Assembly: GCA_051362555.1 (NCBI GenBank)
Contig: CM120640.1
Coordinates: 63,280,788 to 63,344,787, forward strand
Direction of reading: 5' to 3'
DNA from: Lingula anatina
Lineage: Eukaryota > Animalia > Brachiopoda
Length of the DNA: 64,000 nucleotides
Numbering within the stretch: the first letter of the stretch is position 1; each line of letters starts with the position of its first letter. The notes beneath the pieces were generated by a model that saw only the letters and a list, made by a program, of their open reading frames with translations, did not search any database and was not told the DNA's origin. The position numbers and the translations under genes were made by a program. This document shows, one piece after another, positions 10,692 to 61,102 of this stretch.

Positions 10692-11899
10692 ATCGTCCCA
10701 AGGGGCGTGTACCAACAGGGCTCCATGTATACTTCACATGAATACACTTTTAAATTTTTTAGTGTTCAGTTACTAAATTAATTAACATAATTTACACGTA
10801 TGTCTTCTTACGGGTGACGTCATGATTGCGATTTTGGGTAAAAAGTGAAAAACGGTTTCTTAAAAATCTTTGAAAATCTGTAATTAGGGGGTCATAACTC
10901 CATAACAAAAACATTTAAACCAAAGGACGGCATGGGATTGTAGCCTATACACTCGTGGTCAACTCTACCAATTTTTGTGGAAAAGCTCTGTTAGGGGATG
11001 AAGTTACGCCCCATACTGATTGCTATCTCACCTCAAAATAGAAAGGTGTTAAATTGACGGGGGCAGCCAGGTCGCTCAGCGGACGCACAGGTCGCTGTCA
11101 TTTTTACAGGTAAAATCTAGATTCGGTCGTTCAACGGACGCAGAAGGGACGCAGAAGCATTTACACTGAGACGACCATGCTTTGGCGACCATTGAGCTTC
11201 CTGGCCACATTTTTGATCGAGGGACGCTAAAAGAACACCGTCTAGTGCACAGGGGGCTTTAGGTTGTAAATTTAAAAATAAAAGATCTTTGAAAACGAAT
11301 CATATTTGTGCTCATATATAATGGTATATAACGAAGAATAGGGATGGTGATTTACCAACGCAGTAACTAGTATTTATTGTTATTGGGGTTTATTGTGCTT
11401 CTTTGCAATAAGTAAGACACTCATTGAATGTATATATAAAATGTAAGGTACTGTATTAAAAACGGGATTAGGTACTTTTAAAATAAATATTGAAAGGTAC
11501 AATTATGGATAAAATATAACGTTCGTCATTCCTTTAAAATCTAAAAGTATATAGCTAAGTTTAAATAGACATACGAAAGCAATCATTATGGTAATATTTC
11601 TCTACAGATAGCATTGTAAGTTATATCTTCTCAACAAATTACTAGCTCTATTTCTACTGTAATTCAGTATATTTTGGTCTATTTTCCTTTTTTCAAGACA
11701 CTGTCCGACTGTGGCATTGTTATTTGTAAATGAATTCAATTTCATATAAAAATTACAAGTCAAACCGTTGAAGTTATTCACCAGGACCAATGAAAGAGTT
11801 AGAAAAGTCAATCCACAGGACAAAACCATGGTTGTTTAGTACACATGCGATGTCTTCCGGGTGTCAAAATCTGTCTGCGTGAGTCTCTGATGGCCTTTA

Positions 11900-14800
11900 T
11901 TAATCTTCTTCACCATCATCGTCGTTCATTGCTATCTCGTCTTTGAGCAGATCGATAACCATTTCGCGTTCTTTGTGAGACAGCTGGTTCTGAAAAAATA
12001 TATATACATTTTAGTCAAAAGCTCTAGTGACGATTCCAAGAATGACATCGGGTGTTACCAATGGTACAAACAACTCTGAATCCGTTTTATTTATTTATTT
12101 ATTTATCTAACCACCTTTTAAAGAATGAAAAAAAAAACAAATATAATAAATAAGTTAGATTGAGATGGAATAAAACGAAATACATAAAAATAACACAGTG
12201 TAAATAGAGGCCAATGAAAAAGATTTTAAAAATAGTCCCACAAGCATGTACTCCTTAGATTGTCTTTCCTGTTAACTGGAACTATTAACTAGAAAGCCCA
12301 ACGTGTATACAAGTCCTGATGGTCCTGTGACCCTTTGCTAGCAGATTTCATGTTTATCATACTGTACATAAAATTGGGCTTATACCAAAAGATATCATTC
12401 AAGCAGGGTCCCTCTCATCAATAAATGATTGAGTGTAAAATGAGATAGCACGGTCAGTCAATGGTCATGGTCTTATAGAATAGAGATTTGCCTGATTTAA
12501 AAGCAGCAGCATTAGTTTTTGGAATTTCTTTTAAAAGCTCTGATGCACGAAATCTGGAGGAAACACCCATAAATCTAGTAACAAATTTGTTTGCAGTGTG
12601 TCTAATAAAGGGAACCGGAGAAGATCAGCATTGGTCAGAATTGTGCCGGAAGTGACGTGCAGTGGTGTTAGAAACGAAGCTGAGTGGTCATTTTAACATA
12701 GAGGTGAACGGCAGTGAAGACGGGTTGTCGGAGGAAAAAGAAGTTTTCTAAACAACATGGTAAGATAACACTTTTTCTTTACGCATTTTGGGCAGAGAAA
12801 ACTTGTAGAAATAATAAATGCATGATATGAAAACGTGACACGGAACTTGAAGGTGCAAAATCGTGCTTAATTGGCGGTCAACTTGTTTTAAAATGAATGC
12901 TGCATCGACCGCCATTGCGACAAAGAGTGTAAATGGAAAATAATTCCCGGGAGGCTGTAAATCGTTGCCATGTGGAAATTTGGCATTAATATAATCCGAT
13001 ATGTCCATATCTAAGTATTTTTGGGGTGTTTTATGGTATGGGCTGCAATTAGAACGAAGTTTTAGAGGTCTTGAAGGACCTTGTGAAAACAAGGAAGTAG
13101 TTCGTAACTAACAAGTGAAATGTACCGATCTCCGACTGCTGTGCACAGCTGTATCTTTTTTTCAATATATTGACGAATTTTTGTCACAGGACAAATAAAA
13201 CATTTCACTGACAAGATCTTCCCAAAAAGACAAAAAGAGAATTCAGGTGAGCTGACAGGTAATTAAGACTAGCTCAAAGTACTAATAATTGACATTATTA
13301 TGCAATACTCAGTTGGTAAAACGATTCTCACAGGTAGATAAGATGTAACATGACCAATTTCTATAGGCTAATGATTGCCAGCCTGAGGAAATTGATTGCC
13401 AGTCTCTTTTGTCAGTGATTTTTAACTCAGATAAGAGGCTGTCAGAATGTCACCTTTGTCTTGGCATTTGTCACTGATTAGCGCCTTTCCCAGTGTAAAA
13501 GGTATATCAGTGTGATCATGTGTGTGGAATTTCATGCCAGATGGACATATAAAGATCTAAAAATTCGTCAATATATTGAAAAAAAAAGATACAGCTGTGC
13601 ACAGCAGTCGGAGATCGGTACATTCCACTTGTTAGTTACGGACTACTTCCTGGTTTTCACAAGGTCCTTCAAGACCTCTAAAACATCGTTGTAATTGCAG
13701 CCCATACCATAAAACACCCAAAAATACTTAGATATGGACATATCGGATTATATTAATGCCAAATTTCCACATGACAACGATTTATAGACTCCCGGGAATT
13801 ATTTCCCCTTTACGCTTTTTGTCGCGCTGGCGGTCGACGCAGCATTTATTTCTAAGTTCCGTGTCACGTTTTCATATCATGCATTTATTATTTCTACAAG
13901 TTTTCTCTGCCCAAAATGCGTAAAGAAAAAGTGTTATCTTACCATGTTGTTTAGAAAACTTCTTTTTCCTCCGACAACCCGTCTTCACTGCCGTTCACCT
14001 CTATGTTAAAATGACCACTCAGCTTCGTTTCTAACACCACTGCACGTCACTTCCGGCACAATTCTGACCAATGCTGATCTTCTCCGGTTCCCTTTATTCT
14101 TTTAGGTGTTTCTGAGACGTGCAAACCGAATGAACTTCGTAAGTGATATTGGCCGGCGATACTATTGTTCGCCACATAAAAGGTATGGTCTGATATCTAA
14201 GCCATAAGACATACGGAATGTTTTTGTTACGCCTGGAGGTTGGGTAGTCATCCGCTGTATTATTTCAATTGAATGTAACGCGATGCTTTCGAGTTACGGG
14301 CCCAGGTTTAATAACGTTGGCAGAGTGGCCGCTGTTTGCCGTGACATGGACTTTTTTCTATATCTTTGGTTTCACATTTGTTGACGAATCTATCATCCAG
14401 ACTAAATATGTCAGGGATTATAGTATTCTTGGACTGGCGATTGACTGGCTTACGACTTATGAATTGCGGGGATAAATTCTGGGTATATCGCATAATGCAA
14501 AATTATGAAAGTCTCCATTGGTATAAAGAACAACACGTCCGTGGTTTTATCACACGGGTTCCGATAGATTTTGTGTAAAGAAGTCAGATAGACATCAGCA
14601 AATTTACTACTATCCACCCAATAAAGGTCGGTCAATAACTTTATTTTCTCTACCACAGTGGCCGTGGCCTCAGGGAATCGAATTATTTCACAGCCACAGC
14701 ACAATATCAGATCTCCCTGACATAAAAACACATCTTTACCACTTCTTTTATTTTTGCAAAGATGTTCTATATACAAGTCGAAGAAAACCACTGTGACGCT

Positions 14801-15453
14801 GAAGGCTTACTTTCGAATAATTATTGGAAGACACTTTTGTCTTCACAAAAATCGCACAGTTCTGCAATTATTTGTCGGGTATTTTGAAAAAATAACCTAT
14901 TGCCCAGAAGCATGATTGCCGAGTTCACACTAATTTCGGTTGTCAAAAGAGTAGGCCTACATGTATATCCGTAAGCATATAGTGCCCTTTATCAATCTTC
15001 GTCATCTCACTCGGTTTGTCACCGAATTTTCATTAAAAAAGAAGAATATGCGTGTGGTAAGGATGGAAGTAAGTGATAAAAGGTTTTCATAAAAGATTAA
15101 ATGAATTATCGTACCCTGTCAGTGTTATCAGCGTCAGCGACTCTCTTGTTCTGAACCAGTCTGCGTCTACGCGAAGCTAGAAATAAGAACAAATAAAACA
15201 ATAAGCTTAGATCAAAGTGATTTAATACACCGCATCTGCACAGCTTTGATAAACGGAAAACTAACTTAAACTAATTGTTACGAGCACATGATGAGAGAGA
15301 TAGTAAAATAATCAGAAAAATAGCCGAGGCGGATCACTACACTGTGCCAGGAAAAGAGCGAGCAACCGTAAGTAACTTACCGTCAGAATCAGCAAACATC
15401 TGCATCAGTATCATAACCAAAAGCAAAGCCGCAAACATCTTAACCTTTGCCAT
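11900..15453 (-). CDS. Arg-rich secreted prepropeptide, copy 1 (3 exons, intact)
   Basis: Exons 15381-15453, 15115-15176, 11900-11989 with phases 1 and 0. Translation: MAKVKMFAALLLVMILMQMFADSDA-SRRRRLVQN-KR-VADADNTDR-NQLSHKEREMVIDLLKDEIAMNDDDGEED*. TATAAAG at 15541-15547 on the minus strand. Confidence 0.85.
12604..14098. mobile_element. Foldback DNA element with ~550-580-bp inverted arms in intron 2 of peptide gene copy 1
   Basis: AATAAAGGGAACCGGAGAAG... (12604 to ~13182) is the reverse complement of ~13559-14098; the right arm lacks ~40 bp; spacer ~375 bp with no transposase. Confidence 0.9.
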
Positions 15454-17151
15454 GTTGAAGATCACGAGTATCTCTGGATATCGTAGCTTGCCGCGTCTGT
15501 TGTAGAATCGGAATACACTTGTTCCTGCCCAAATACGCCGCTTTATATTGGCCAAGCAGTGAAGTCAATGGTTTACGCATGTGCAGAAAGGGTTTTGGGT
15601 GTTAGGCTTCACGTTTATTCCCATCCTATCTACCCGCCCCTGATGCTATGAAAAATGAATACTCCTTTTCCTCTTGGCGAAACGATCGCAATGTCGCAAA
15701 ATGCATTAAACACGCAGAAAGGTCAATTGGAGTCACATTTTTGTTTTGGCCCTTTTAAGATTCCGTAGACCAATTTCTTTCCTTTTTCACAACACTGGGA
15801 CTTATTTCTCTTTTAGAGAATAATAGAGTTAAAGGATATGTTTAATGGCTGAAATACAGTAGGATTATGAAAAGGTGCTTTCACATGCTTTTCTGTGAGA
15901 TGTTATTTGAAATTTTCGTTTTGATGACACATGAAAGATACTTGCTGACTAATGACTAATTTTCACACATCTTTTACACTTGGGGTTTACTTTGGTTCAC
16001 GGAATAAGGGACATAAGAATTAAATTTTACCAAATGGTTAGAATTTCGATTACTTTTTTAAGCCATAGAAGAGCTGATTGCATGAAGGCATAGGACACTA
16101 TAGTATATTCGACATAAACGCCATCGCACGGAACAGCTGAGTTAAGCAGAGGCACTTCTTCCTCAGCTTGGGCCATATAATATTTGTGTAATAATAATCA
16201 AACTGACGAAATGAAGACAAAATAAATGCAGTTGTTTTTGTTTCTGCTATGTACACAAAAACGCCATACATATAATTGTTTCCTTGATTTTACGGCTTTT
16301 AGCCCCTGCATTTTAATCTTATTTTACATCGATCTGGATTACTTTCAAATCTGAGCAACTGATCATGAGAGTTTTAAAAAATATATGAGAAAGGTGCTTT
16401 GAGGAAAATGGTCTCATGCTGTATAATAACATACATGTACACAAACTAGAAATGGCGTTATACCCTTTATTCGGTTTAAGGGTTGCTTTTCGGTGGAATA
16501 CGAGTAGTCTCTTTCGGTATGCATGGGCATTTATCGCTCGAGTGACAGTGTATTATGTCACACTCAACATACATGAAAATCACTTGGGTTGTTAGGGAGA
16601 AAATATCTTTGACGCCAATATCTCATTTATGTACTTATAGAACGATATAAAACAAATAAAAATAATGGCGGATCAGATGATTGCTCACGCAATAACTATT
16701 TATTAGTTACAGAATTTATGCTCTATGACACCTACAGTAATTCGACATAGACCACGAAAGCCATCGTGGATTGTTAGCAGTCTCTCTTGAGGGATATTAT
16801 TGTTGGTTTTGTCTTCTCAACTAATCACTGCTTTCAGCTCTATTTTAGTTCATTTTGATCTATTTTTGTTTTCCTTCTTCAAAACAATCTTCTAGTATGG
16901 AATTGTCCATGAATTCAACTTTACATGTGAATCATGTTAAATTCTATAAGTAGATTCTACATTCTATGAGAATAAATGCATCTTTAATGAATTTATATTC
17001 TTGCGTGAAGAAAAATACAAGCCAGACAGTCGAAGTTATCTGACAGACCTTTTTTAAGTTAGAAAAGTCAATCTAAAGAATTAAATCGTGTTTGAGTACA
17101 CGTGATGACCTCCGGGTGTCGAAAACTGCCTGCGTGGGTGTCTGATGGCCC

Positions 17152-20100
17152 TTATTCATCTTCTTGGTATCCGTCCGGTTTGTCACCGGGATCGTTCATG
17201 TCGTCCTTGAGCAGATCAATGATCATGTCACGCTCGTGGTCGGACAGCTGGTTCTGAAAACGAAAACAATAAGTATTATTGTAGCTAAAAATTCTTTCAG
17301 TGATTTCAAAATGGTCCCGATTTTTATCGAAAGTTACTCTGATTTTAAGACCTCTGAATCATAGCAAGATACCTCCATGTTTTATCCTCAAAATAAAATC
17401 TTTGAAGGATTTACTGCAAGTTAGAAAATTACGAAATATCTAGTAGGCCTACTGGTACATGTCCCTTCAAAAATTTTGATATTTGAATTTGACTACATTT
17501 ACACATTTAAAATTGTAGCTTAATTGTGCATTTCCATCTGCAGTGTATATGATTAAAAGGATGAATAAGACGATTGTTCACAAAGGACCTATTTATTGCT
17601 GTGAACTCTGATGATGCGTCATTTAAGTCAAAATTGATCACGAAACACATCCCAATTCTCAAAAGTCTTTCGAGATATTACTGGCATACAGCTTTGTCTT
17701 TCAAACAAATCGCATACTTCTGCAATTATTTGTCTGATTTTCAATAAATTCAATCTACCGAGGAGAATCGTGGTTGATGAGTTATCACTGTAGTGAGGTG
17801 TCTTTACTAAACGTCTACATATCCGTCACTGATATAATTCATAAATATTTCTTCTTTATTCAAATCGATCATGTTGCGTTCTTTTTACAGACTTGACATT
17901 TAATACGAAATATTTCAGTTTCGAATGTATGCCTAAGTAAAAAAATGCGTTCTTTTTTCAAAAAACTCCAATCTCATGTAAGATATGTGAATGGAGAAGT
18001 GTGTAGTCAGGTGTGTCGCTTCCAATTAACTGAATACCAGGTTTGTTGCGCTGCTGCATTATGTAATATGCAGTGATTTAATTGGGTAGTGCTCCTTTGT
18101 GCAGGTCAAAGCTTGTCTTTGGCAAAGCATGGTTCTGTCAAAAAAGTACCCATATGTCGACAACTACTGCATAGATGAATTTGAAATTTTGCATGCAGGT
18201 GGTCGGTTTTGCAGGTGGTAAAATGAGCTATGCAGTGCTTTACAAATTTGTTAATCTGTGCAGAATGGCGCGAAAAAGGCAGACATTGCCAGACAGATAA
18301 TCGCGCCAAACGAAACGGACCCCACAGTTTTATAGAGTAATGCCCAGACTGATGTACCTACACAGATGCCACACCCAATGTATTGAAATCTTACCACCAG
18401 AGTACAGGGCCCACTGTTTTTCGGGATATGCTGCCACCAAAACGCATTTTTCAAGGCCCTTAGCGAACACCAAACTGGTTTTACCAGGTTAGAATACCAG
18501 ACGACCTACGAAGAACCCGCTGTAAACAGCAAAACATCGTTGTATGTTTCTCTAATGAACTGGGGACCTTGACCGTTTTTGGGTTGAACACTGAAACCTC
18601 GTGGCTTTCTTTATTAATGTCAGATTTCACCTGTAATGCCCAACTAGTCAAAACAGAGTTTACAGACATCCAGAAGAGGCCAACGACGAAGCGTGTGCCG
18701 CGTCTAAAGTGACTTAGGTCATTAACAGCGTCAGTATTTGGAGTGGATAACACATTGGTGCCAAAACGCCAATGGTAGTCATCGACGAAAACCTGAACCA
18801 GATCAAATAAAGGAATAATCTGGGAACCACTTGACTATCATTTGATAGGGGGCACCTTAGGAACAATTTTAGGTTGCGCAGTGAGATTGCCCGTTCACAC
18901 GGAGCACTTTTAATAGCAGATTACTTGGAGAACCAAGGGAATAAGCAGCTACCTTGGTCATCAAAATCGCCATATTTAAACCACATAGACAATATGTGGG
19001 TAGGCCATTACTCGCCAAATCAATGGCCTACATGTCCTGCAACAAATCTGGACCAAATTGGACAGCTTTTGATCGATGCCTGAAATGTTATTCCAGATTG
19101 AACTCTAAAAACCAATCCCAAGGAAAGCCTTGCCACTTGAGAGCGCTTGTAGCAGCCAGAAGAGGTCAGGCGTAACAGCAACCGTTACTGTGACTAGACA
19201 CTGACATGAGGGTCCTTTGTGGAGCGTGTAACTCTTTTACAGACAATAATTTGGAAAATATGGAGATCCAAAATATCTCTTTTAATGGTTGTCGTATGAC
19301 ATAGAATAGGCAATGTGTTTTTGTTTGCTTCTCTGGCGAATTACATTAATTAACTGATATCAAAATGACATCAAAGAGATAATTCAAAGTTATTAAAACA
19401 CGATTTTAATCCTTGTTTTCATTTATCAGTCAGCAGAATAGGAAAAAACTGATGAAATATGATTTGGAAAATATATTCCATATTAAATGTCAAGTCTGTA
19501 GATACTGTGCGCTGATAGAGAAGTAAAAATTAACTCATTGCCAGCAAAAAAAAAAGCACCATGGTCGTCTGTAATCAAATTGATCATATCATGTGGCGCT
19601 CTTTGTCAGACAGCTGATAATGAAGTAAAAGACTCAAAAACGCAGGTTAACCCGATTGGCCAATCACTTTCATAAATGTTTTATAAAAAACATATGAAAC
19701 TGAGCACCGTCATTGGAAGATGGCACTGACAATGAAAGAAAATGTATTTGATAAAGAGGAAGTAGTGTTAGAATACGTTGATACTAGTAGATTAACATAC
19801 CGTGTCAATGTTTGCAGCGTCAACGTCCACAGCGTCCTCAATTTTCTTTCCATTACGCCTGCGCCTTCTACGTCTACGCCAAGCTAGAAGTAAGAATAAA
19901 TTAATAAAGGTTTTAATATTTTGAATATTCAGAATTCGCACAACATAAACAAATGCATTTAACCCAAATTGATTTGTAGGAAAGCTGATTTTTCTTCATT
20001 TGTTTTAAGAGAGAGAGAGGGAGAGAGAGTAAAATTATCAGAAAAATAAAAACACTGTGCCAGGAAAAGAGTGAGCAACTGTAAGTAACATACCGTCAGA

Positions 20101-20166
20101 ATCAGCAAACATCTGCACCAGTATCATAACCACAAGCAAAGCCGCAAACATCTTAACCTTTGCCAT
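17152..20166 (-). CDS. Trp/poly-Arg secreted prepropeptide, copy 2 (3 exons, intact, amidation signal)
   Basis: Exons 20094-20166, 19801-19883, 17152-17253. Translation: MAKVKMFAALLVVMILVQMFADSDA-WRRRRRRRRN-GKK-IEDAVDVDAANIDT-NQLSDHERDMIIDLLKDDMNDPGDKPDGYQEDE*. TATAAAT at ~20254-20260 on the minus strand. Confidence 0.88.
17888..19498 (+). mobile_element. Decayed Tc1/mariner transposon
   Basis: TIRs CAGACTTGACATTTAATA / TATTAAATGTCAAGTCTG are flanked by TA on both sides. The remnant ORF 18874-19083 contains LPWSSKSPYLNHIDNMW, a degenerate Tc1 WPxxSPDLNPIENxW motif. Confidence 0.88.
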
Positions 20167-20694
20167 GTTGAAGATCACGAGTATCTCTGGATATCGTAGC
20201 TTGCCGCGTCTGTTGTAGAATCGGAATACACTTGTTCCTGCCCAAATACACCAATTTATATTGGTTAAAAACAATGGAGTCAGTCACACTTAATGCTTCT
20301 CTATTACGCTCGCAGACCATGAGATAAATATTTCAATGTTTTCAGGATCACTCAGCTGATCAGGAATGATGCACGACACGAAAATGAGAGTGCATTTCTT
20401 AAATGTCCGTGTTATGACATAAAATAATTATATCATTGTGCCATCGTAATCAGGTAGTTAGCGCTTATTTAATTATGTCCCCATAAATGATTAGTCCCAC
20501 TATATACCGTAATGCAGGGAATTTATGATTGCGTCTTATGAAATTAAATACACAATTCAATGTTAATGCTAAATACATGGAAGAAGAGTTTTGTATTGTG
20601 CAAGTGCATACCTCATTATGTGAAACTAAGTACGACTCAACCCTCACGATCCTTGCAAAAATGCGGATTAATTGAGATTCCACGTAGAGAGAGA

Positions 20695-20728
<34 letters not shown>

Positions 20729-20995
20729 TTGAAGGGGGGGGGGGAACAGCTATCAATGTTCAACCTTTGCAGAACGTGTACATATTCTTATCTGAAATTC
20801 GCATAGTAAGTAAGAAGTAAGTTTGCGAATCTAAGGAAAATGCAAAACGTTGTAGGTTATCTTGCATAATCGTTAAGGTTTTACATTTCTGTGATAAATG
20901 AAATTAAAGAGTTGGAAAAGTCAATCTACAGGACAAAATCATGGTTGTCGAGTACACGTGATGACTTCAGGGCGTCGAAAACTCTGCGTGAGCCT

Positions 20996-21298
20996 TTACC
21001 CATCTTCTTCACCATCGTCATCGTTCATTTCTATTTCATCATTGAGCAGATAGATGATCATTTCGCGTTCTTTGTGAGACAGCTGGTTCTGAGGAAAAAC
21101 ATTTTAGTCAAAAGCTCCAGTGACGATTCCAAGAATGACATCGGGTTTTGCCAATGGTAACAATGATTTTAAGACTCTGAATCCGTTTTATCTTCGAACC
21201 ATACATTTTGGACGATTCACTAAAAACTTGAATGACATGATATCACCACAAGTATTCATGAAAACAATGCCTTAACAACAGGTTAAGTAGCCTGGCCT

Positions 21299-21359
<61 letters not shown>

Positions 21360-22216
21360 GGGGGTGTAGGAAACAGTAACAGAGAGGTGATGAAAGAGGG
21401 TACAAAGGGGAGAAAATGTCAAAATCTAAATATTTTTATCAAAACCAAGATTTTCCTTAAATGACTAATCGACAGTCGAAGTGTTCCATCTCTTTTACAA
21501 AAACAAATTTTCATCGGCAACATATCGAAACCCTCTTATTGTTATTTCATTTAATTCATCATATCTGGCTATACGAATCAAATACAAACTATTTTCGTTT
21601 TCAGGTAGAACCTTCTTCATTCTTACTTTCCTGCGCCTGCGAATAAATTCTATGGGTTTGTTTTCTACGTGTGTTATTTCATTCTTTTTAAAATGGAAAA
21701 GAAAATATATTGAAGGGTTAGTAATCAGTGATAAACAATAACATTGACGGCCTATAACAACAGTTATTTGACATACATATATTGAATAATGTCCTCGGGT
21801 ACTTTCCCTTACCAACATATTCAACAGCAATATTGCTGAAGCGTATAGCGAAAAATTGAAATAATTCTACACATGAACAAGTCCAATACTCGAAGGATGA
21901 TGAGACCTTTTGGCACTGTTTCAGCTTTTTTGTGTAATATTATTATTATTATTATTATTTTCGCACAGATGCTATTGAACCATAGATATTATCATGTCAT
22001 GATTTTACTTTACATCTACCACATATTACATCATCACATACGAAACCGGTCTCGTATAATACACAATAGCATTCAATAACATTATTGCTGGATCGTATAG
22101 CGAAAAATTGAAATAATGATACGCATGAGCAAGACGTGGGTGGGCATTCTTAGTGCTAGCTTTCAGGTGCAATTATCGCCGAAACAAGCCTTTTGGCACT
22201 GATCCCGCATATTTGT

Positions 22217-22260
<44 letters not shown>

Positions 22261-22409
22261 GACTCACAGATGTTGATTTTTGAGATTTTGGTCTCAAGAT
22301 TGAATCCAACAGTATAAAGACGCACAATGTCAAACCATTTGTTTTGTCAGCATGCACTCAGGGTCAGCAGTGCAAAGAATGCAAGGACATTGAAAGTTTG
22401 TCATGGCAT
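20996..22409 (-). pseudogene. Peptide family copy 3, probably pseudogenised
   Basis: Clear exon 3 at 20996-21088 (NQLSHKEREMIIYLLNDEIEMNDDDGEEDG*). An Arg-rich exon-2-like segment at ~21590-21650 (EFIRRRRKVRMKK) has uncertain splice sites. A signal-like stretch MP*QTFNVLAFFALLTLSAC* from 22409 contains stops. TATAAATA near 22485. Confidence 0.55.
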
Positions 22410-23114
22410 GGAATCATCTTTCTCCCAGTCCGCTGCGTTCGTCCTCTCCCCCCTCCCCCTCTGCGACTCCTACCTCTGAGATATTTATACAGTTTAATCC
22501 CAGTTCCATTATAAGATTATAAATTACACAACATGAGTTGTTCTAAGATTATGCCGTCTATTTAGGATCCTAGATTATAAGTATTTGTTATAGTATTTGT
22601 TAAAGAATTGAAAGTCGGCTAATTTCAAAGAGGAAGGGCCATAGACCATAACAGTGCACAACGAAGCAATATACGTTTATTGAATTTATATTATGTCTTT
22701 AACAACACCCAGTTTGAAAAATGAATAAGAAGGTCAGTTAAATGTCTTCGATAAAAATGTCTGCCAGGTACTTTCCTTTACCGATAAGCTTTCCACTCAA
22801 TTTCTGACACTTTTATCTTCTCATCACCAATATTTTGTATACATATTGTAGGTTCCTAACCTTGTTTTATCTTTCTATAATTGTCCAAAAAAAATGAATA
22901 AATATTTGTAGGCATATATACTTCACTCCCACAGTAAAAAAAATTGGAACGAACTTAGACAATTTGTAAACATTATTAACCATCGTATCTCAGAAATTGA
23001 TCCCTTTTCTGATACAGAGACGTAAATCCAACTTTATATCGAAAAAGTTGAATTCTAAAAAGCGCTATAAAAATGTACATATGAATCTCAATAAAAAAAT
23101 CCTGTCATTTCACT

Positions 23115-23569
23115 TCATTCATCTTCGTCATCTATCTCGTCATCATTCATGAATATTTCATCTTTAAGCAGATCCATGAGCATATTTCGCTCTTTTTCAG
23201 ACAGCTGGTTCTGCAAAATAATAATGGTGATAACTTAAGTTAGTATAATGAATGAATGAATAAAAATTCACGTTGTATATGCAGTTCTCTTAAAATGACA
23301 ACAACTGGTCGTTTTAGCTAAAAACAGTTTTTCCCGGGGTAAACGACGATTTCCCCATACTTACCAAAGGATAGTGAATTCATTCCAACATTTAAAATAA
23401 GTGCATTTAAGTGATTTTTGGTATAAGTGCATTTAAGTGATTTTTGGTATTAACTCTTAAGATTGTAATAAAAAACTCTTTGTCACAGACTGGGGCTTGA
23501 TAACAATATTTGACCTACGTATTAGATATTTCTTGGTTCCAAGATTTTCTATTTAGTGACTTTCTATGG

Positions 23570-23626
<57 letters not shown>

Positions 23627-23841
23627 CTACGTTTCGCTTGTCACAAGAACATCATCAGGCTGAATGTTGACATGTCGTTGGGTACGTGCTGGTCGACCTG
23701 TGAATGATTCTCACATTAACTGAATAATATTTCATCTCTTTTGAAACAATATTTAGCATACCGTGTTTGCTGCGTCGTCTTCACTGTCCAAATTCTTTGA
23801 TAAACTTGCTCCTCTCCTTCTGCGCCTCCGCCTCCACCAAG
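23115..23841 (-). pseudogene. Peptide family copy 4: exons 2-3 intact, signal exon missing
   Basis: Exon 2 at 23762-23841 reads (A)WWRRRRRRRGASLSKNLDSEDDAANT; exon 3 at 23115-23210 reads NQLSEKERNMLMDLLKDEIFMNDDEIDDEDE*. The position of exon 1 in paralog copy 5 is occupied by a 4.2-kb TIR element. Confidence 0.75.
23626..23663 (-). ncRNA. Degenerate minimal type-I hammerhead-like motif (Penelope-type)
   Basis: Minus strand tcagc-CTGATGA-tgttc ttgtgac aagc-GAAACGTA-gc. The core is intact but stems I and II are weakened. Confidence 0.5.
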
Positions 23842-23902
23842 CTGCATTTAAAAAAAATGAAAATAATTGTTACATTGAATTTTCAAACTAAACGTCAATG
23901 GA

Positions 23903-26735
23903 AGTCTCTGTAAGGTTCAGAATAGGGTGGCACATGACCCTCTCAGATTTTGATGAAAATTGGTGTATTTGTTCATTATAGCCCCAAACCAACACAATGG
24001 ATATTGGTTTGTTTGAATCACCCTCGGTTACCATGGTAACAGCACTTAAAATTTTTCACCCAAGATGGCGGAATCCAGATTGCAAAATTTCAATTTCAGC
24101 TATATTTGAGCTAAAAAAACCATCAATGTGGATAAATAAACATTTTTCATTTTCAGACATTGTTACATATCATATCCTATTTGAACTAAAAACATATAAA
24201 TAAATGTTTTTGGTGGCCTTTAAAAATTAGAAAAATAACTTTGAAAATGGGGAATTTTCAAAAATTCCAATTTTTGCTAAAATGCCCAAATTTGCAAATT
24301 TCAAATACATTTTTCATAGACTGGCCAAAGCCATCTATTATCACCATACATTACATAAGAAAGTACATGTACTGTCCTTTTATAATCAAAAATAAAATTT
24401 TTTTCAAACACATTTTTCAAAAAATTATTCAATTTTTAAAATTCTTAATCCAAGATGGCGGCAACCAAATTGCACATTTTACATATTTGTGTATATTAAA
24501 AATAACAAACATGGTTAAACACATATTTTATATTTGTATGTTGCTAAATCCCAAATCTTGATTAATTGAAAAACATAAAAAATATTATTTTTTGCTGGCC
24601 TTTAAAAATTAAAAAAATAACTTTGAAAATGGGGAATTTTCAAAAATTCAAAATTTTGCTAAAATGCCCAAATTTGCCATTTTCAAATACACTTTTAATA
24701 GACTGGCCAAAGCCACCTATTATTGACATACATTACATAAGGAAGTACATATACTGAACTGTTTTAATCAAAAATAAATTTTTTTTCAAACACATTTTTC
24801 AAAAAATTATTCAAATTTTAAATTCTTAATCCAAGATGGCAGCAATCAAATGGCAAAATGTCCCTATTTCTGCTTTAAACTAAACAAGCATGGATAAAAC
24901 ACACATTTCATTTTAGTATCCTGCTAAATATTATATCTTGATTTAGTCAAATGCATATTACTTAATATTTTAAACAGTCCTAAAAATTTAGAAAAACAAC
25001 TCTAAAAATGGCAGATTTCCAAAATTTCAAATTTTAGCTAAAATGCCCATATTTTGCCATTTTTAAATACATTTTTCATAGACTGGCCAAACCCACCTAA
25101 TATTGTCATACATTATAAGTAAATGTTTTGAGTTAATATTATAAAAAAATCTTTTTTCAAACATTAAAAAAAAATGCATATTTTTAAATTCACAATTCAA
25201 GATGGCGTCAACCAAATTTTCCATTTTTCGCTATTTCTGCTTTAAAAATGGATTAAAATACAAATTTTGTACTTGTGTCCTGCTAAATAACTTGATTTAG
25301 TCAAAAGCACACAGGTAAATATTTTTGTGATCTTTAAAAAAAACTTTAAAATGATGAATTTTCACAATGGGACAATGGGTGTTAATCTTTCAAGGTCATA
25401 CAATAACAGCAATGTGGTGGTATTCTTTTGGTTGACATCCAATAGTTGAGAAATATCTCCTACCAGTCTCAGCTTCAGTTTCAATCTCTTGTGGACCTTC
25501 TACCACTGTCCAGGAAAAAATTCCCTTATTCATAAACTACTATCTATAATGTGCGTGGATTTAGCAGTGCCCACCCCAGATTAGTTAACATTTTTATTTG
25601 ATTCTTTTAATCGTATATGAATATATTTTAAACAAGTCACAGTGAATTAAAACATGTTTTTAGTCTTTCTTATTTGAAAGAAAATGAGGCATCTTCTCTA
25701 CATAGTAGTAAATTATATGAATATTTATTATGGTGTTCAGCATTTTTGTCACAAACTTAAAATACCAATATATATTTTCCCTCATGCTCCTTGCCCTAAG
25801 GTGTTCATAATTTATTAATTTTGCTAATTTTCTTTTGGTATACAATTTATTTGTAAGAATATTTGTTGTAGGTAAAGTCCATTGGTAACCAGCTACACTG
25901 TTAGAAGTTGTGATATCAAAGCAAAGCAAAGCAGTTATCAATGTTAAGGGTGCCTCAACATGATAGTATTTGATGCATTTTGTCCTGAGAATCATGCATG
26001 ATCATACATTTTGACTAGTCCAACATCTGCCTCAACACTGAGGACTAATTTGGCATGTTACAATCAGGTAGAAAGTATCATTATGATAATTTCCCCTATT
26101 TAAGTTACTATTTACAATTTTAATGTAAAGAGTAAAGTTAGGTCACCTGCTAGTTTTCAGTAAAGAAATATGAGAAAAATTTATGGATAACACAGACTTT
26201 ATGATATCAAAACTGTGGGAGCATTATGCTAAGCAGGACTTGATTAGGTGAGTCTTTAATACAAATAGCATGATTATCAAGGCTTATAAAGTAATGCTAA
26301 CTTGTTTTAGTATTTTTTGTGACTGAAAATCTAATGTACTGCTATATCTTTCCGAGAAAAACTGAGCTGCAAGACTGGTTTGTCAAATAAAGTGCAATAG
26401 TACACACCATATCACTCCCATTCTGAAAGGATAAACTTGGCTGCTTGTATTTGTATTATTTTTAAGGCGATACATACACAAGGACCATTATATTTATCTG
26501 ATCCTATCTGTTTTAACTGACCAAGGCGGTCCACACATTTTAATACTGAGAATGACCTTATTTTAGAACACTATTTTAGAGAAGGGGTGCCTCAAAAGTT
26601 ATGGAGATCGGGCTTTTATAATCTATGCCTCCAAATTATGGAACGCCTTACCAAATTTTATTTGAAAAGCAGTTGACTTTGACAGTTTTAAATCCCTTCT
26701 TAAACTCACATTTTTAAATCTGTCTATATCTCTTT

Positions 26736-26787
<52 letters not shown>

Positions 26788-28117
26788 GTTTTTAGTAGTG
26801 TTAATTTTAAATGGTTTCCAATTGTTTCAGATTTAAATATTGGATTGTAGTGATTTTTTAATGATTTTAGTTATATTATTGTAAGGCGCCTTGAGGTAGC
26901 ACGTAAGGCACCATATCAGAATATTATTATTATTATTGACAGATATCTTTTACATGTCTATTTTATTTTACAAGTTTTTTATTTAGAAACCTGGTTGTGA
27001 AGAACTAGAAATCTCTTCCACTTGTATGAGTACCAATTTCTACTGTATATATTAAGTATTCAAGTAATCTGTTCTGTTATCGACTTCAAGTACCTGAGAG
27101 GGCACGACGGGCCTTACAGGGCGCTGTTTTAAATTGGAGGTAGACCATATTCAAGCAGTAAATAGCCGTCAAACACAAACTCACGTTGAACATCAAAACT
27201 TTATTAGAAAACCTGTATCAAAGTTAACACTGACTGTAATTTAGAGTATAGTAACTGACAGTACTTTACTTATTTGTCGATTATATCGGATATTAACGGC
27301 AACTGCATGCACGTGAGGGAGAAGACGAGGTTTTAGTTTTCTTGATATCCGTAGTTAGTAGTGCCGATTATTTACGACCATAAAGTTCTACCAGTCCTTT
27401 CTTGTGGTTAATTTATGAAAAATTGCATATCATGCCGTAAATAAATAACTGTGTGCATTCTCCTTCCACATACGAAACCGACGGCAATCAGAGCTCCCGC
27501 CATCTTGGATAAAATTAGTTATGTTGTATATAAAAAAAAAACGATGTGCGGAAACAAATACTACACACCAGTCAGCATAAAAACAATCCAAGCAATAAAT
27601 GAACCAGAAAACAAGTGCCATTTATCCAAAAAATATCTATTTCATGAGATAAATAACCTTAATTCAATTTATTTACATCTGAATGAGTTCGTAGTTTAGC
27701 AGTCACCGCTACTGCGCATGCGCAGATGGTCTTTTTCGCGTAGTTTTAGCGTTGATTGTTTTTAATGTAATTTAACCATTTTGTGTTTTGAAAAAAAATT
27801 TATTTCAGTTTTTGGTACCTGAATATATGCTGTAAACATCTTGTATAGCCATCTTACATAACTACGTCGGCCATACGAGTTATTTGTCAGTGAATATGGG
27901 GTTACCTGAACATTTTATATAGAAAAGCATATGGGAGAAAAATTTCAGGCTTAACTATAAAACGCTCTAAAAAATAAATTATTTTAAATATGCAACTTTT
28001 CGGGCTCAATTTATTAGTTTTTAGCATAGTTCTTCACAATAAATTAAAAGAAAACAAAATCTGGGAGGGTCATGTTCCAATGCCCCTATGTTATTTTTCT
28101 GATTCTTACAGAGACTG
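23903..28117. mobile_element. ~4.2-kb non-autonomous TIR DNA element with internal ~380-bp tandem repeats
   Basis: Left AGTCTCTGTAAG...ACATGACCCTCTCAGATTTTG matches the right end CAAAATCTGGGAGGGTCATGT...CTTACAGAGACT. CAAGATGGC recurs at 24061, 24451, 24832 and 25198. Confidence 0.7.
26360..26938 (+). mobile_element. 3' fragment of an L2/CR1-clade LINE nested in the TIR element
   Basis: Degenerate C-terminal motifs HITPILKG*TWL, YGDRAF, KLWNALP and FKSLLK, followed by a TTGTAAGGCGCCTTGAG tail ending in (ATT)n. Confidence 0.75.
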
Positions 28118-28791
28118 GTACTTAACAAAGAAACTAGTTTTTCGTGGCATGAAATTGAATATGATTTATTCAATATTTGCGGCTAAATGAGGGTTGCTCT
28201 ACCTGAGGCAATTAAATTGTGATTTTTTTTTCCTTTTTAGAGTTACAAACCGTGTAGATTACCTTTTTGACTCGATGACCGGAACGGCTATGGTATTCGA
28301 AACTATGTGGATCGAATGAATAAAGGTCCCCGTTTCTTTTACATAGTCATTTGTTAAAAGTAAAAACAGGTTATTTAGAGCACATTAATGTTCCATGCTT
28401 CACAAATTTTGGATAAAAACACGGGTACGCCTACCTTCAGGAATCATGTAAGGACAGATATCACAAAGAACAGTGTATCACTGTGCTAACTTCTTTTATT
28501 CAAGTTAAAGTCTACCTTCAGGGCCCTGTCGTGAATATTTCACCCTGCACACGTATTTTCACTTATTTAACATAAAAGTTCATTCTGTGTTACACTTATT
28601 TATCTTATTATACTCCTCTTTGTATATGAAATTTCTCTTTATTGTCAGTAACTTTGCCTAATTTGTGTATAATATTTATACACGTCAGTATTAAAACATC
28701 TGATTTAAATTAGTTTGCCACAATATACTTTGTAAGACACTTTTTAGTACCCACTAATCAAGGCCTTTCTTCTAGAGTAATGCGGGGGATT

Positions 28792-28853
<62 letters not shown>

Positions 28854-28909
28854 ATGGAAATATGATCCACCCAAAGCGACATTACCTGGATAAAAAAATC
28901 TATTTATGA

Positions 28910-29072
28910 TCAATCTAAATAAAATAAAAACATTCAAAAAGGATACAGTTTTCTTTCGTCTTTAGAATGATGCCAAACTCTGGACACGCCTCCAGGAACA
29001 CTACTGCTGTCCATATAATATCTCTAGTACCTTAACAAATTGCCGCAAAGACAACATCACTAAAACTGCCTA
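28910..29072 (-). pseudogene. Duplicated, internally deleted copy of the WDR11 penultimate exon with its U12 donor
   Basis: Aligns by eye with ~38350-38517 (AAAAGGATACA.TTTTCTTTCGTC...GCCGCAAAGACAACATCAC.AAAACTGCC) with a short deletion. Confidence 0.85.
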
Positions 29073-29506
29073 TCTGTATTTATATATCTGAAGTTGCTTA
29101 TGAATCCGCTTCTTATACATGCATGAAAGAAGAACATTTTGGTCAAATCTAGTCTACATAAACAGAGAAATTAGTTTTCAGTGGCATCAAATTGAATTTG
29201 ATAAATTTCATATTTGCGGTTTAAAATGACCACCCAACCAACTGGATGTATCTGATTATTTTTCATAGCATTTTTATCATGAATTTACACTATACTACAG
29301 TATACACCAGGCTATTTTTCTTTTATATTTATATATTTATATTTATATTTTGAACACTATACTTCTAGGCTATTTTCTCCTGAAGCTGTTTTATTAGATC
29401 GGCAAATTCTCCCGCTATTTTTAACCAAACTAAAGCACATATTCGAAGTGTTCTTAACTACACACAAATAACGCTTAAAGGCTTTAGACATGTAGATCAT
29501 TTATTA

Positions 29507-29674
29507 CAGGGGCGGATTTAGGGCGTCTTCTGGGTCTTCTGGAAGACGGTCAGATTTTCAAGTTTACATTGACGGGTATCTAACTTTTTCTGTCGGAAGA
29601 CGGTCAAAAATGGAGGATTGTTCAACGAAGATAAATTGGAAGACTGTCAGAAAACAACTCTGGATCCGCTCCTG
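29507..29674. mobile_element. ~170-bp CAGGGGCGGAT MITE (copy 2) with TATTA target duplication
   Basis: tatta|CAGGGGCGGAT...ATCCGCTCCTG|tatta; the paralogous empty site at ~31324-31332 reads TATTACGAC. Confidence 0.85.
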
Positions 29675-31798
29675 TATTACGACTGGCCAGTTTGACGGCA
29701 TGTTTATCACTCTGTCCTCACTCGTTTCTCATCTCGTTTCTCGTTTGTTTGTCTGTTTTTTTATCCAATTTTCCACTGAGCTCACGCTCAAGGGTGTTGA
29801 ACTCCCAAGCCATAAATACGTTAATCAGAGGGGTTAGTCTTGAAATTTGTTCTTTTTCCGTATGTGAAGACAAGAAGTCCAGTGTAGATCACCATTTTGA
29901 CTAGGTGACCGGAACGGCTATGGCATTCGAAACTAAGTGGATCAAATGAATGAAGGACCTCGCTTCTTTTACAGTCACTTTTTTTATAGTAAAAACAGGT
30001 TAAGTTTGAGCACATTAAATTTTGGATGAAAGACACGGGAATACCTACCATCAGGACTCATGTAAGGGCAGATGTCACACAGAACAGTGTATGACTAAGT
30101 TTTTTTTAGTCAAGTCTCCCTTCAGGACCCCATGAATATTTCACCCTGCACGCGTGTTAACGTATTTTTACTCATTTACCCTATTAATGCAAGATTGTAT
30201 TCAAAACTTTTCAGCAAATAAAATATGTTTAAGTCATTAACGTCGCCTTAGTTTTTCTTCAAACTCGAAAAAAATTTGCGATAAAAGGTCCACTTTTTCA
30301 GGAAAAGACCCCCCTTTGAAATCGCTGGCAACATACATACGGGACCTGGTATTTTACATAAAATTTCTACTAGTGTTACACTTTTTAACCAATTACACCC
30401 CCATTTGTCTTTGCGATTTCCCTTTATTTTCACCAACTTGGTCAAATTTGTTTTTTTTTTGTGTTATTTGTGTAATATTTATAGACGTCTCTCGCGTTCC
30501 GTGATGCAAGCAGAGAATCTTTATAATCTCTCCCCCCCCATCCACCCAATTTTGAAGGATTTTATGTTACAAATAAAAAATGTTTAAGTTTGTTTGTTTA
30601 TATAAATATATTTTATAAATACATACTCGATTTGACAAGTTACGATAAGAAAGAATAGAGAAATTAGTTTTAGGCTTAATTCAAGCTTTTTAGTTTTTTA
30701 TTTGTTTTATATTAGAATGCTTTAATTTTTCAGTTCGGATACTGGTTCTAAAGGACGACAGAAGATAAAGCAAGATGGAGTTTTCTTTCTAAAAATAAAT
30801 ATACTCAAGAACTGATCATTATCATTATTTTTATTTTTATTTTATTAGCCTTTTTAAACGGTTTCGTTTTTACAGATATTTGTTTTTATTGTTTTGTTCA
30901 AAGTTTGTTCAGATTGAAAAAAAAATTAAATAGCAAGTATTCATTGTTTTCAATTTTCACTAATGACTGCCTTTATGACAATACGTTAAACCGGAAATAA
31001 AGCACACGGAATGAAATGAGCGCTTCCACCCTAACACTGTGTCTTTGTTTATATTATAAATATTTTTGCTCGTTTGAGTGTAACGAATTAGAACCTACGT
31101 ACCACTCTTTTTATATCTGAATTTTTAAAATCGCTTCTTATACATTCTTATACGGTTTAAAATGACCACCCGACCAGCTGGATGTATCTGATTATTTTAA
31201 GCTGATTTCATTAGATCGGCAAATTCTCCCCTTATTTTTAACCAAACTGAAACACATATTCGAAATGTTCTTAACTACACACAAATAACGCTTAAAGGCT
31301 TTAGACATGTAGATCATTTTATTTATTACGACTCGCCAGTTTGACAGCTTGTTTATCACGCTGCCCTCACTCGTTTCTCATCTCGTTTCTCGTTTTTTTT
31401 TTTTTTTTATCCAATTTTCCACTGAGCTCACGCTCAAGGGTGTTGAACTCCCAAGCCATAAATACGTTAATCAGAGGGGTTAGTCTTGAAGTTTGTTCTT
31501 TTTCTGTATGTGAAGACAAGAAGTCCAGTGGTGATGCAAATGTAACATGACCACGAAGCAAGGACGTATATTGATATACAGATAATATATAACATCACAA
31601 TTGACATTCTTTTTAATATAAGAAAAAAATGAAACCATTCCTGTAACTTATTCATTTGCCATGTACTGGGGTTCCGTTTCTGATATATAGGCGTAAATCT
31701 AACTTTTTATCACACAAGTTGAATTCTAAGTAGCGCTTTATAAAATTAAGCTTTATAAAAACTGCACATGTGAACGTCGATGAAAAGTCCATTTTAGT

Positions 31799-32693
31799 TC
31801 ATTCATCTTCGTCTTTTATCTCGTCATCATTCATGAATATCTCATCTTTAAGCAGATCCATGAGCATATTTCGCTCTTTTTCAGACAGCTGGTTCTGCAA
31901 AATAATAATTGTGATAACTAAATTTAGTATAAATGAATGAATGAATAAAAACTATTCACGTTGTCGGTGTTGTTCCCTTAAAGGATAACTGTTCATTTTG
32001 ACAAAAAAACAGTTTTTCCTGTGGTAAACGACGACTTTTTTCATACTTACCAAAGGTTAGTGAATCCATCCCGACATTCAAAATTAGTCCATTTTTTCTA
32101 ATACGTTTGATTTTAGGTAATAATCTCTTAAGACTGTAACAATAATCTCTTTGTCACCGACTGGGGTTTGATAACAATATTTGACCTACGTATTAGATTT
32201 TCCATGGTTCCAAGATTTTCTATTTAGTGACTTCCTGCGGAACAATATATAAATCAGCTACTTTTCGCTCGTCACAAGAGCATCATCAGGCTGAATGTTG
32301 ACAGGTTGTTGGGTTCGTGTTCGTCGACCTGTGAACAATTTTCACACTAACTGATTAATATTTCATCTCTTTTGAAGCAATATTCAGCATACCGTGTTAG
32401 CCGCGTCGTCTTCACTGTCCAAATTCTTTGATAGGTCTACTCCTCCTCTGCGCCTCCGCCTCCGCCAAGCTGTCAATTACAAAATACAAAGAAAAATGAA
32501 AATAATTGACATACTGAATTTCATTTAATGCCAATGGAAGTCTTTATCATATTACAGCAAATCAGACACAAACCGTTAAGACTGGACGCGACAAAGAAAA
32601 AGCAAAAAGCTTCAACATACCTTCAGAATCAACAAACATGTGCACCAGCAATATTGTCATTAGGAGCAGAGCAAATCTTTGACATCCACGCAT
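31799..32693 (-). CDS. Trp/poly-Arg secreted prepropeptide, copy 5 (3 exons, intact)
   Basis: Exons 32621-32693, 32393-32469, 31799-31894. Translation: MRGCQRFALLLMTILLVHMFVDSEA-WRRRRRRGGVDLSKNLDSEDDAANT-NQLSEKERNMLMDLLKDEIFMNDDEIKDEDE*. TATAAAAA at ~32771-32778 on the minus strand. Confidence 0.88.
32254..32294 (-). ncRNA. Degenerate minimal type-I hammerhead-like motif in intron 2 of copy 5
   Basis: Minus strand TCAGC-CTGATGA-t-GCTC ttgtgac GAGC-GAAAAGTA-GCTGA. Stem I (TCAGC/GCTGA) and stem II (GCTC/GAGC) pair perfectly; C>A change in helix III. Confidence 0.55.
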
Positions 32694-35708: not shown

Positions 35709-36344
35709 TTAGAATCCGACCTCTGGTGTGAGAAGCGGCGTGGTAGTTGGAGGGCTGCGAGGGCTGGATGAGGGAGGCAGCTGGACAGTGGTCCCGGTGA
35801 CACAGTCCCATGGTGTGTCCACCAGCATCATAGAACCATGCATACAGTAGGTGGTGGTACACCACTCCTTACGGACCACACTTCCAGTTGGATACCACTG
35901 GCCTGCAACCATGCAACCAACATCATGATGGTGTGTTGTAGTTGAGGTGGGTAAGGGAGCAGTGGTCAGGCATCCCCATTCTGCTGGCACACTCCCAAGG
36001 CCGTGGTATGAGCAATAAAAACAGGTTCCATCCTGCATTATGTAGCTCTCAACATTTATTGTCTTGTCGCCGACCCTACACTGGCGCGGGTTGCGTTGGG
36101 TTGTGGTACTGGGATGAGGGCGACTAGTGGAAACAGGCCTGGGGAAGCACTCGGGTTTTGCCACAGACCGCACGTAGCCGTTAGCGCAGTAAACCATGAA
36201 ACATTTCTCGCTGGCGATCAGACCCTCGTGAAAAACTTTGCCTTTGTAAGTACACGTGTCACTTAGCTTTAACGGTAACCCGCAGGCGTACATGACAAAC
36301 ACAGAACCAGCAAACGCCAGGAAAAAATATCCGTGTCCTAACAT
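35709..36344 (-). CDS. Secreted protein (~211 aa) with three 4-Cys VWC-like modules separated by Thr/Pro-rich linkers, single coding exon
   Basis: Signal-like MLGHGYFFLAFAGSVFVMYACG; modules CTYKGKVFHEG..C..C..C, CRVGDKT..C..C..C and CMVAGQWYPTG..C..C..C; linkers PVSTSRPHPSTTT, TTAPLPTSTTTHHH and PPSSSPRSPPTTTP. The ORF is open upstream to 36443. Confidence 0.8.
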   Translation of the reverse strand: MLGHGYFFLAFAGSVFVMYACGLPLKLSDTCTYKGKVFHEGLIASEKCFMVYCANGYVRSVAKPECFPRPVSTSRPHPSTTTQRNPRQCRVGDKTINVESYIMQDGTCFYCSYHGLGSVPAEWGCLTTAPLPTSTTTHHHDVGCMVAGQWYPTGSVVRKEWCTTTYCMHGSMMLVDTPWDCVTGTTVQLPPSSSPRSPPTTTPLLTPEVGF

Positions 36345-37105
36345 GTCTGATTTGTCGGTAATCAATAGAATATGGAGATTTACATGTAGGTGCAACAAGA
36401 TAAAGATGAGGTCTTCGTGATGGAAGCCATACCATATGGGCATTTCTCATATACCAGTAAAGATAAGAAGTTTCTCAATACTATGAAGATAAGAAGTCCA
36501 AATGACGAGTCATGACAAATAGCCACTGTACTATTTATTTTATAAATAAAATGAAACGATAAACAAAAAATTCAATATACATCCAAATTATTGCACAAAT
36601 ATATTTCGAAGAAACGGATTTAGTCTGTAACTTTCGTATAGAAATGAACAGGTTCCTTTCTTGAACAAAAGAGATTGTTCCTAATCTGACAAATCTAAAA
36701 ATAAAGAGCTTAACAAGTTTACTCAGAATGCAACCTCATTAAAAATATTTTCAGTCCGTTCCCCTACTAGTGCATCGCTGAATGAAAAGCATTGTCTGCA
36801 CCTGCACCACGCATAGAGAACTGATATAGTAACTGATGAATTTTATGCAGAACTGATGAAGACCACAGTTTGTCAAAGCATTACTTCCCCTTAGCAAAAT
36901 ATCAGGCCTGCTGCAAACTCTCTAGCAAATTTACTGCAAATTTGCAAGAAATTCTTGCACCAAGTTGCTGCGAATTTGCTGCTAATTTACTGCAAATTTG
37001 TAAGAACACTTTTATGCAAATTTTTATGCAAAATTTTTATGCAAATTTGCTGCATATCAGCTACAATACAAAATTTTCTTGGAAAGTGGTTGCCACAAAC
37101 TTTTA

Positions 37106-61045: not shown

Positions 61046-61102
61046 ATCTGTGAAGTTGAGTGCTCTCTCCTCACTGGGATATTTTGCAAACTCCTCCCTC
61101 TG

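Follow-up and report, generated by a model that had tools for sequence, protein, structure and literature searches.

The minus strand of a 64,000-nucleotide (nt) stretch of the genome of the brachiopod Lingula anatina (GenBank assembly GCA_051362555.1, contig CM120640.1, positions 63,280,788 to 63,344,787; hereafter the window) carries a tandem birth-and-death family of small genes, the predicted secreted precursors of which join a Trp/Arg-rich core to an acidic tail. The minus strand of positions 11000-34000 was read with a six-frame scan, and exon models were built by script. A first-pass annotation of the window had counted five three-exon loci; we find three complete genes on the minus strand (copies A, D and E), and according to DNA profiles copy B has exons 2 and 3 and copy C exon 3 alone. 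That annotation over-counted the complete copies, and it overlooked the extension of the motif to corals and amphioxus. The features of the complete copies are as follows.

32693-32621 / 32469-32393 / 31894-31799, minus strand: copy A, 81 residues
32773..32778, minus strand: copy A TATA box, 85 nt above the ATG
32621..32693, minus strand: copy A exon 1, predicted signal peptide (best 10-residue hydropathy 3.07), ends Ser-Glu, phase-1 GT donor
32393..32469, minus strand: copy A exon 2, Ala and then the W-R6-GG core, with the first part of the acidic tail
31799..31894, minus strand: coding part of copy A exon 3 through the stop, with the NQLS motif and a D/E tail
20166-20094 / 19883-19801 / 17253-17152, minus strand: copy D, 85 residues
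20255..20260, minus strand: copy D TATA box, 94 nt above the ATG
20094..20166, minus strand: copy D exon 1, predicted signal peptide, ends Ser-Asp, maps to XP_013381668.1
19801..19883, minus strand: copy D exon 2, Ala and then the W-R8-N-GKK core, which has an amidation-type Gly and a dibasic site, with an acidic linker
17152..17253, minus strand: copy D exon 3 coding part
15453-15381 / 15176-15115 / 11989-11900, minus strand: copy E, 74 residues
15542..15547, minus strand: copy E TATA box, 94 nt above the ATG
15381..15453, minus strand: copy E exon 1, predicted signal peptide
15115..15176, minus strand: copy E exon 2, divergent S-R4-LVQN-KR core with neither Trp nor Gly
11900..11989, minus strand: copy E exon 3 coding part

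In all three genes exon 1 has 73 nt and ends in phase 1, the introns are GT-AG, exon 3 is in phase 0 and the frame is free of internal stops; a TATA box lies 85-94 nt upstream of each ATG. On these points the first-pass annotation was accurate: the 73-nt phase-1 exon for a leader ending in SD or SE, the canonical splice sites and the TATA box are all present in A, D and E. Exon 2 measures 77, 80, 83 and 62 nt in copies A, B, D and E, respectively, and begins with Ala in each, as had been described for a range of 62-83 nt; the four cores quoted for D, A, B and E were found exactly as written. The phase-0 exon-3 NQLS motif, which had been called conserved, has 13 invariant columns in all five copies. 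The predicted leaders show a basic N-end, a hydrophobic core of 3.1-3.4 and Ser-x-Ala at -3/-1, and the computed charges are +6 to +10 for the cores and -10 to -14 for the tails. An Ala-Trp(Trp)-Arg6+ string occurs three times in the window and in none of 100 Markov resamples. Because the Arg codons are mixed, differ from copy to copy and show synonymous change inside the run, a microsatellite origin of the Arg runs is ruled out. When compared with the exon-2 profile, the string FIRRRRKVRMKK at 21641, proposed as a probable further core, gives 1.3 bits (E 19); it is not homologous and is most likely a chance occurrence. Neither exons nor precursors (queries P0001 and P0003) matched any Pfam family at the curated cut-off. 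A single-sequence AlphaFold model (pLDDT 64, pTM 0.27) is usable for a predicted helix at residues 88-101 alone.

Although the family had been described as hidden, copy D is already a RefSeq protein, XP_013381668.1, the uncharacterized LOC106152583 of Lingula anatina. The exon-3 profile retrieved this protein as its one match among 1776 candidates and again as its one match among 1.84 billion representatives. All 116 residues of XP_013381668.1 place onto the window, and from residue 32 onward they correspond to the exons of copy D with the junctions 20094/19883 and 19801/17253, exactly as predicted beforehand. The first 31 residues are read from a second frame of copy C (21021-21000), which is joined by 21000/20237 to the 5′ region of D. 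We consider this extension to be an artefact or a read-through because it borrows the second frame of copy C and uses an acceptor just below the TATA box. For copies A and E, two of the three complete copies, the profile searches found no protein record.

The remainder of the cluster consists of partial and decayed copies. With nhmmer, the exon-1 DNA profile found only three copies in the window (next best E 1.7-2.6), and the exon-2 profile found four (A, B, D and E). The partial features are as follows.

31094..31145, minus strand: remnant of an A-type promoter that stops at the TATA box, exon 1 absent downstream (81% over 54 nt by blastn)
29079..29169, minus strand: another remnant of an A-type promoter, breaking off at the TATA box (78% over 101 nt by blastn; exon 1 absent by nhmmer)
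23762..23841, minus strand: copy B exon 2, Ala, WW-R7-G core, AG/GT sites intact; exon 1 not found by nhmmer
23115..23210, minus strand: copy B exon 3 coding part, protein 97% identical to that of A
20996..21088, minus strand: copy C, orphan exon 3 lacking exons 1 and 2 (profile searches)
19564..19630, minus strand: decayed exon-3 copy with an early stop, inside intron 2 of D (nhmmer E 2.3e-8)
17835..17886, minus strand: decayed exon-3 fragment adjoining the end of a repeat insertion (nhmmer E 0.0027); loose read ends lie at 17886
14984..15025, minus strand: weak candidate fragment of the exon-3 end (nhmmer E 0.023)

The remnant at 29079..29169 is possibly the former promoter of copy B. Ratios of nonsynonymous to synonymous substitution (dN/dS), computed with a Nei-Gojobori script over 28-79 codons per pair and carrying no significance test, were 0.13-0.59 in nine of the ten pairs of copies, and the tenth pair was saturated. 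The ratio was 0.18 for B versus A and 0.13 for C versus E. Because these values are low, the partial copies B and C may have been constrained until recently, or may still function in a form unseen in the assembly. Two repeats lie within the introns of the complete genes. A fold-back element resembling a miniature inverted-repeat transposable element (MITE), with perfect 245-nt terminal inverted repeats, occupies 12604-14098 in intron 2 of E, and related copies occur in RNA reads. A repeat insertion occupies 17886-19500 in intron 2 of D, with decayed exon-3 pieces at its flanks; copies 90-95% similar to it are plentiful in the RNA runs X7 and X9 described below.

The core also occurs outside the brachiopod. 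A search with residues 33-116 of XP_013381668.1 gave five matches among nine candidates. One is the query itself, another is Oculina patagonica ACROYT_G003745, and the other three are unnamed proteins of that sort. P0003, the Oculina protein, agrees with copy D in 24 of 42 residues, and the entire core is among them. From 4000 candidates, a profile built from the five sequences drew 127 matches with E no higher than 10, and the best 120 of the 127 were used. After cluster look-ups, 148 proteins were sorted by pattern into 83 with an acid tail, 15 Cys-rich fusions, 15 others and 35 with no matched core, the last of which mostly begin downstream of it. The named acid-tail or related records come from Lingula, Oculina and Exaiptasia (AIPGENE19529), and the unnamed ones are coral-type by similarity only. 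Five of the Oculina matches share one contig and have close locus numbers (ACROYT_G003721/34/35/44/45), which suggests a tandem cluster there too. The coral and amphioxus relatives, all hypothetical or automatically named, share with Lingula an SDA followed by a W-R(n) start (W-R8-NGK in stony corals) and, in corals, the acidic tail (charge -4 to -14); the common SDA-W is partly selected because the matches were drawn by words from the query. Exactly eight Arg plus Trp occur in 51 of the 83 acid-tail records, and the run ranges from 4 to 11 Arg. An ESM Atlas query with a coral protein was uninformative (best score 0.76).

The same start is found on larger proteins. The Cys-rich fusions comprise nine TSP1-type records (confirmed by Pfam in all three scanned) and six dermatopontin-type records of amphioxus, in which W-R7-9 stands immediately ahead of the first Cys; the fusions score weakly (E 0.28-7.7), by motif alone. 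The amphioxus records carry the names hemagglutinin/amebocyte aggregation factor-like or dermatopontin. Among the smaller relatives, P0103 is an unnamed 64-residue precursor with the same start and then a strongly amphipathic cationic stretch ending in G-K-R (hydrophobic moment 1.12), and judged from its sequence it resembles the classical antimicrobial peptides that are helical and amidated. In P0027, P0033, P0039, P0096 and P0099 the Arg run is interrupted or precedes Pro-rich stretches, as in Pro/Arg-rich antimicrobial peptides.

The gene structures of the two groups differ. Eight metagenome loci, among at least 582 pattern matches, hold a coral-type gene with two coding exons, to which Lingula adds a second intron. 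The coral-type intron is in phase 2 within a Ser codon (six loci with exon 1), whereas that of Lingula is in phase 1 within an Ala codon. The coral and Lingula tails are alike in composition only, since 26-159 of 500 shuffles reach their score. Homology of the tails is accordingly not shown, and the exon-3 profile finds the Lingula protein alone. No clear DNA similarity between coral and Lingula was found, the best match being 75% over 40 nt (E 0.03). We reject contamination by coral or a recent transfer from it because the window's own introns and repeats surround the exons, the intron phases differ and the DNA match is that slight. The W-Arg start itself may be due either to deep ancestry or to the convergence of a low-complexity motif; convergence is conceivable because intron positions and tails differ between coral and Lingula. 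Tentatively, Trp-(Arg)8 may be an ancient natural octa-arginine effector module of cnidarians, brachiopods and amphioxus with two uses, namely an acid-caged amidated peptide and an N-terminal targeting or delivery tag on immune proteins of the TSP1 and dermatopontin types; the module would then be the natural, genome-encoded equivalent of the synthetic cell-penetrating peptide R8.

According to the explanation that we favor, and that we consider about evenly balanced between right and wrong, an amidated W-Arg peptide with a role in defense (W-R8-N-amide from copy D) would be released from a precursor masked by its tail. Signal peptidase would cut after Ser-x-Ala and expose the Trp. The acidic tail, with its short predicted helix, would pair with the Arg run and mask it in the secretory pathway; a convertase would cut after Gly or Gly-Lys-Lys, a carboxypeptidase would trim the basic residues to Gly, and PAM would amidate the product. 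The freed polycation could then bind anionic microbial surfaces and agglutinate, permeabilize or enter microbes, a binding or assisting role being more probable than that of a strong lytic antibiotic. The amidation chemistry of CPE and PAM is established, and because of it Gly would block carboxypeptidase trimming of the Arg run. Among the matches listed, Gly follows the run within three residues in all 83 acid-tail records (with K or R immediately behind the Gly in 59 of the 83), a count that was drawn with a Gly-containing profile and many near-identical coral records and that is to this extent a point against the explanation. At 35% identity the acid-tail records form eight tail classes, and Gly is present in all eight, whereas Cys directly follows the run in all 15 Cys-rich fused records among the matches listed. 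Gly is tied to the free-peptide form and Cys to the fusions, which favors an amidated free peptide with Gly as the amidation donor. Furthermore, W4R8 inhibited bacterial growth (PMC4053608 Table 1). The intact frames and the charges, the dN/dS values, the agreement of the RefSeq junctions, the myticalin-type layout, the presence of the start on P0103 and on the amphioxus aggregation-factor-like or dermatopontin proteins, and the probable tandem cluster in Oculina count in its favor as well.

Several further observations weigh against this explanation. Candida albicans withstood Arg3 to Arg9, with minimum inhibitory concentrations of at least 2048 uM (PMC8284473). Furin cleaves L-Arg9 (PMC11394684), so the Arg run could be lost to cleavage instead of being freed. 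In copies A and B the Gly is present with no dibasic site right behind it, and the core of copy E has neither Trp nor Gly. A constant core is also unusual, in that the cores of the mussel myticalins are hypervariable (PMC5577615). Finally, RNA support is faint. Four of nine species-labelled raw-read runs (X1, X4, X7 and X9) were mapped to positions 11700-20400, with about 6 in 100 of run X1 read. Run X1 gave a mean depth of 3.13 on the exon-3 bin of copy E (about 911 bases, roughly 6 reads), with first mates on the plus strand only, as expected for minus-strand RNA in most stranded libraries, and about 111 bases in the exon-2 bin of E. About 73 bases fell in the exon-1 bins of copy D, one of which contains a masked repeat, and this region and its counterpart around exon 1 of E share 96% of their DNA sequence over 213 nt. 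Exons 2 and 3 of D received no reads in the four runs, and in X4, X7 and X9 every exon of the mapped region was free of reads. No exon joint reached the listing threshold, and in these four runs the proposed RNA check of the junctions listed no spliced reads over those of D or E. Transcription of E is therefore weakly indicated and that of D not at all.

The inactivity of Arg9 on Candida and the behavior of L-Arg9 as inhibitor and substrate of furin therefore keep two other explanations in view. Poly-L-Arg is bound and cut by furin (PMC11394684), as would suit a removable leader, that is, W-(R)n as a polybasic convertase site or granule-sorting tag, with the working product being what follows, whether acidic peptide, TSP1 or dermatopontin domains. 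The same start on nine TSP1-type and six amphioxus dermatopontin-type records, straight before the first Cys, fits a leader. So do the conservation within Lingula, which is highest in the exon-3 motif, and the conserved end motif that the coral tails have of their own. The Millepora cytotoxin-1 precursor reportedly has an arginine-rich pro-region as well. However, R-x-x-R would suffice for cleavage, yet 51 of the 83 records keep exactly eight Arg plus Trp; a Gly specific to the acid-tail form would be useless; and the Lingula and coral tails are alike in composition only, while the core is identical. We regard a leader as possible but doubtful.

The inhibition of furin by L-Arg6-9 (Ki, the inhibition constant, 42-114 nM; PMC11394684 Table 1) suggests instead that the released Arg peptide might be a regulator, one that inhibits the animal's own furin-type proteases or serves as an amidated signaling peptide. 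An amidation-type Gly is present, and the core is invariant across phyla, as is typical of ligands of receptors and enzymes. Nevertheless, defense genes are the better fit for a family with one core per precursor, an Arg run that varies between 4 and 11 residues, turnover in tandem and copies in decay, and Pfam at its cut-off gave no family for P0001 or P0003. A regulator is, in our judgment, quite unlikely.

Left uncut, the precursor would be a block polyampholyte made of an Arg block and an acidic block, which could have a structural, adhesive or mineral-binding role in a matrix, for instance by binding phosphate and calcium in shell, mucus or skeleton. Arg-phosphate and Asp/Glu-calcium binding are established chemistry, the charges are arranged in blocks, and both named acid-tail hosts, Lingula and Oculina, mineralize. 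The motif is nonetheless present in the non-mineralizing Exaiptasia and amphioxus, and a matrix role is weakened because the Lingula genome paper reports finding no secreted acidic proteins among the shell matrix proteins (PMC4595640). The accession and motifs are absent from the supplements of that paper and of a 2026 shell proteome (PMC13425148) by a term search, which picture tables, other identifiers and files lacking sequences would escape, and shell proteomics may miss very small peptides. This role is unlikely.

Styelins, clavanins and Ci-MAM/Ci-PAP have an anionic C-terminal pro-region. The styelins and clavanins of ascidians are, like the predicted Lingula product, amidated cationic peptides that begin, or nearly begin, with a Trp (a brominated one in styelins), but they are amphipathic helices of 23-32 residues rich in Phe or His (PMC10608444), whereas the Lingula core is a homopolymer. 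No Pfam families of the styelin or clavanin type were matched by P0001 or P0003 at E up to 0.1. The closest parallel in layout is with the myticalins and modiocalins (PMC5577615), which also form a multigene family with three exons and pseudogene copies. The order of signal, Arg-rich cationic core and anionic C-terminal extension, which the first-pass annotation had proposed, is supported and matches the published myticalin description, as does the Gly with basic residues for amidation by CPE and PAM. The differences are nevertheless considerable. The Lingula core has 9-14 residues rather than 23-42, and it is a W-Arg homopolymer, nearly constant across phyla, rather than a variable Pro/Arg/Tyr-rich sequence. 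In Lingula, exon 1 encodes the signal peptide, whereas in myticalins it is 5′ untranslated region only and exon 2 holds the signal, the core and the KR site; intron 2 has phase 0 in Lingula and phase 1 in myticalins. At the position of the conserved myticalin Lys-Arg site, D has G-K-K and E has K-R, and A and B have no dibasic site (PMC5577615). Because core length, gene structure and the KR site fail to agree, the Lingula family has a myticalin-like layout and is not a myticalin. No mussel proteins were named among the protein-search matches, and a direct pairwise comparison with myticalins was not made. The synthetic peptides R8, W4R8 and NP339 resemble the core in their 6-11 contiguous Arg and N-terminal Trp, but they were designed, whereas the Lingula peptide belongs to a genome-encoded precursor with a presumed masking tail. 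In addition, one Trp with eight Arg falls below the 11 or more Arg that gave antifungal activity (PMC8284473).

Outside the cluster, the window contains the following features.

1481-3040: 146-bp tandem array of about 10 copies
9421-9846, plus strand: exon-like frame with no Pfam matches, which we take to be fatty-acid transport protein-like
24135-25115: 382-bp repeat in three copies
35709-36446, minus strand: 245-codon frame just upstream of the cluster that looks secreted, with Cys-rich repeats and Thr/Pro-rich linkers and no Pfam match at the cut-off
48425-49267, plus strand: tyrosine-recombinase-like frame with weak integrase SAM matches, presumably a DIRS-type retroelement
53166-53537, minus strand: exon-like frame with no Pfam matches, presumably WDR11-like
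59393-61219, minus strand: 608-codon stop-free frame, apparently intronless although the genome is that of an animal, with a NodZ (alpha-1,6-fucosyltransferase) Pfam match above the cut-off

Judged by titles and the beginnings of abstracts, among which most subscription papers do not figure, no prior description of a W-Arg precursor family was found, and brachiopod, lingula, polyarginine and RRRR are absent from the accessible portions of the marine antimicrobial-peptide reviews. The precursor layout is already known; what is unusual is the W-Arg core recurring in three phyla. The family is real and mostly unannotated, and its function in host defense is something that we only infer. Octa-arginine is a standard designed cell-penetrating peptide, and we did not find described a natural secreted octa-arginine with an identical predicted product of 9-10 residues in a brachiopod and stony corals. 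If such a peptide is confirmed, it would account for the unannotated W-Arg run that opens many marine proteins with TSP1 and dermatopontin domains, and would offer brachiopods and reef corals a new candidate defense or microbiome-shaping peptide that is simple to synthesize. Were the run only a convertase leader, it would still be a recognizable secretion motif common to several phyla and would flag small genes that annotation overlooks.

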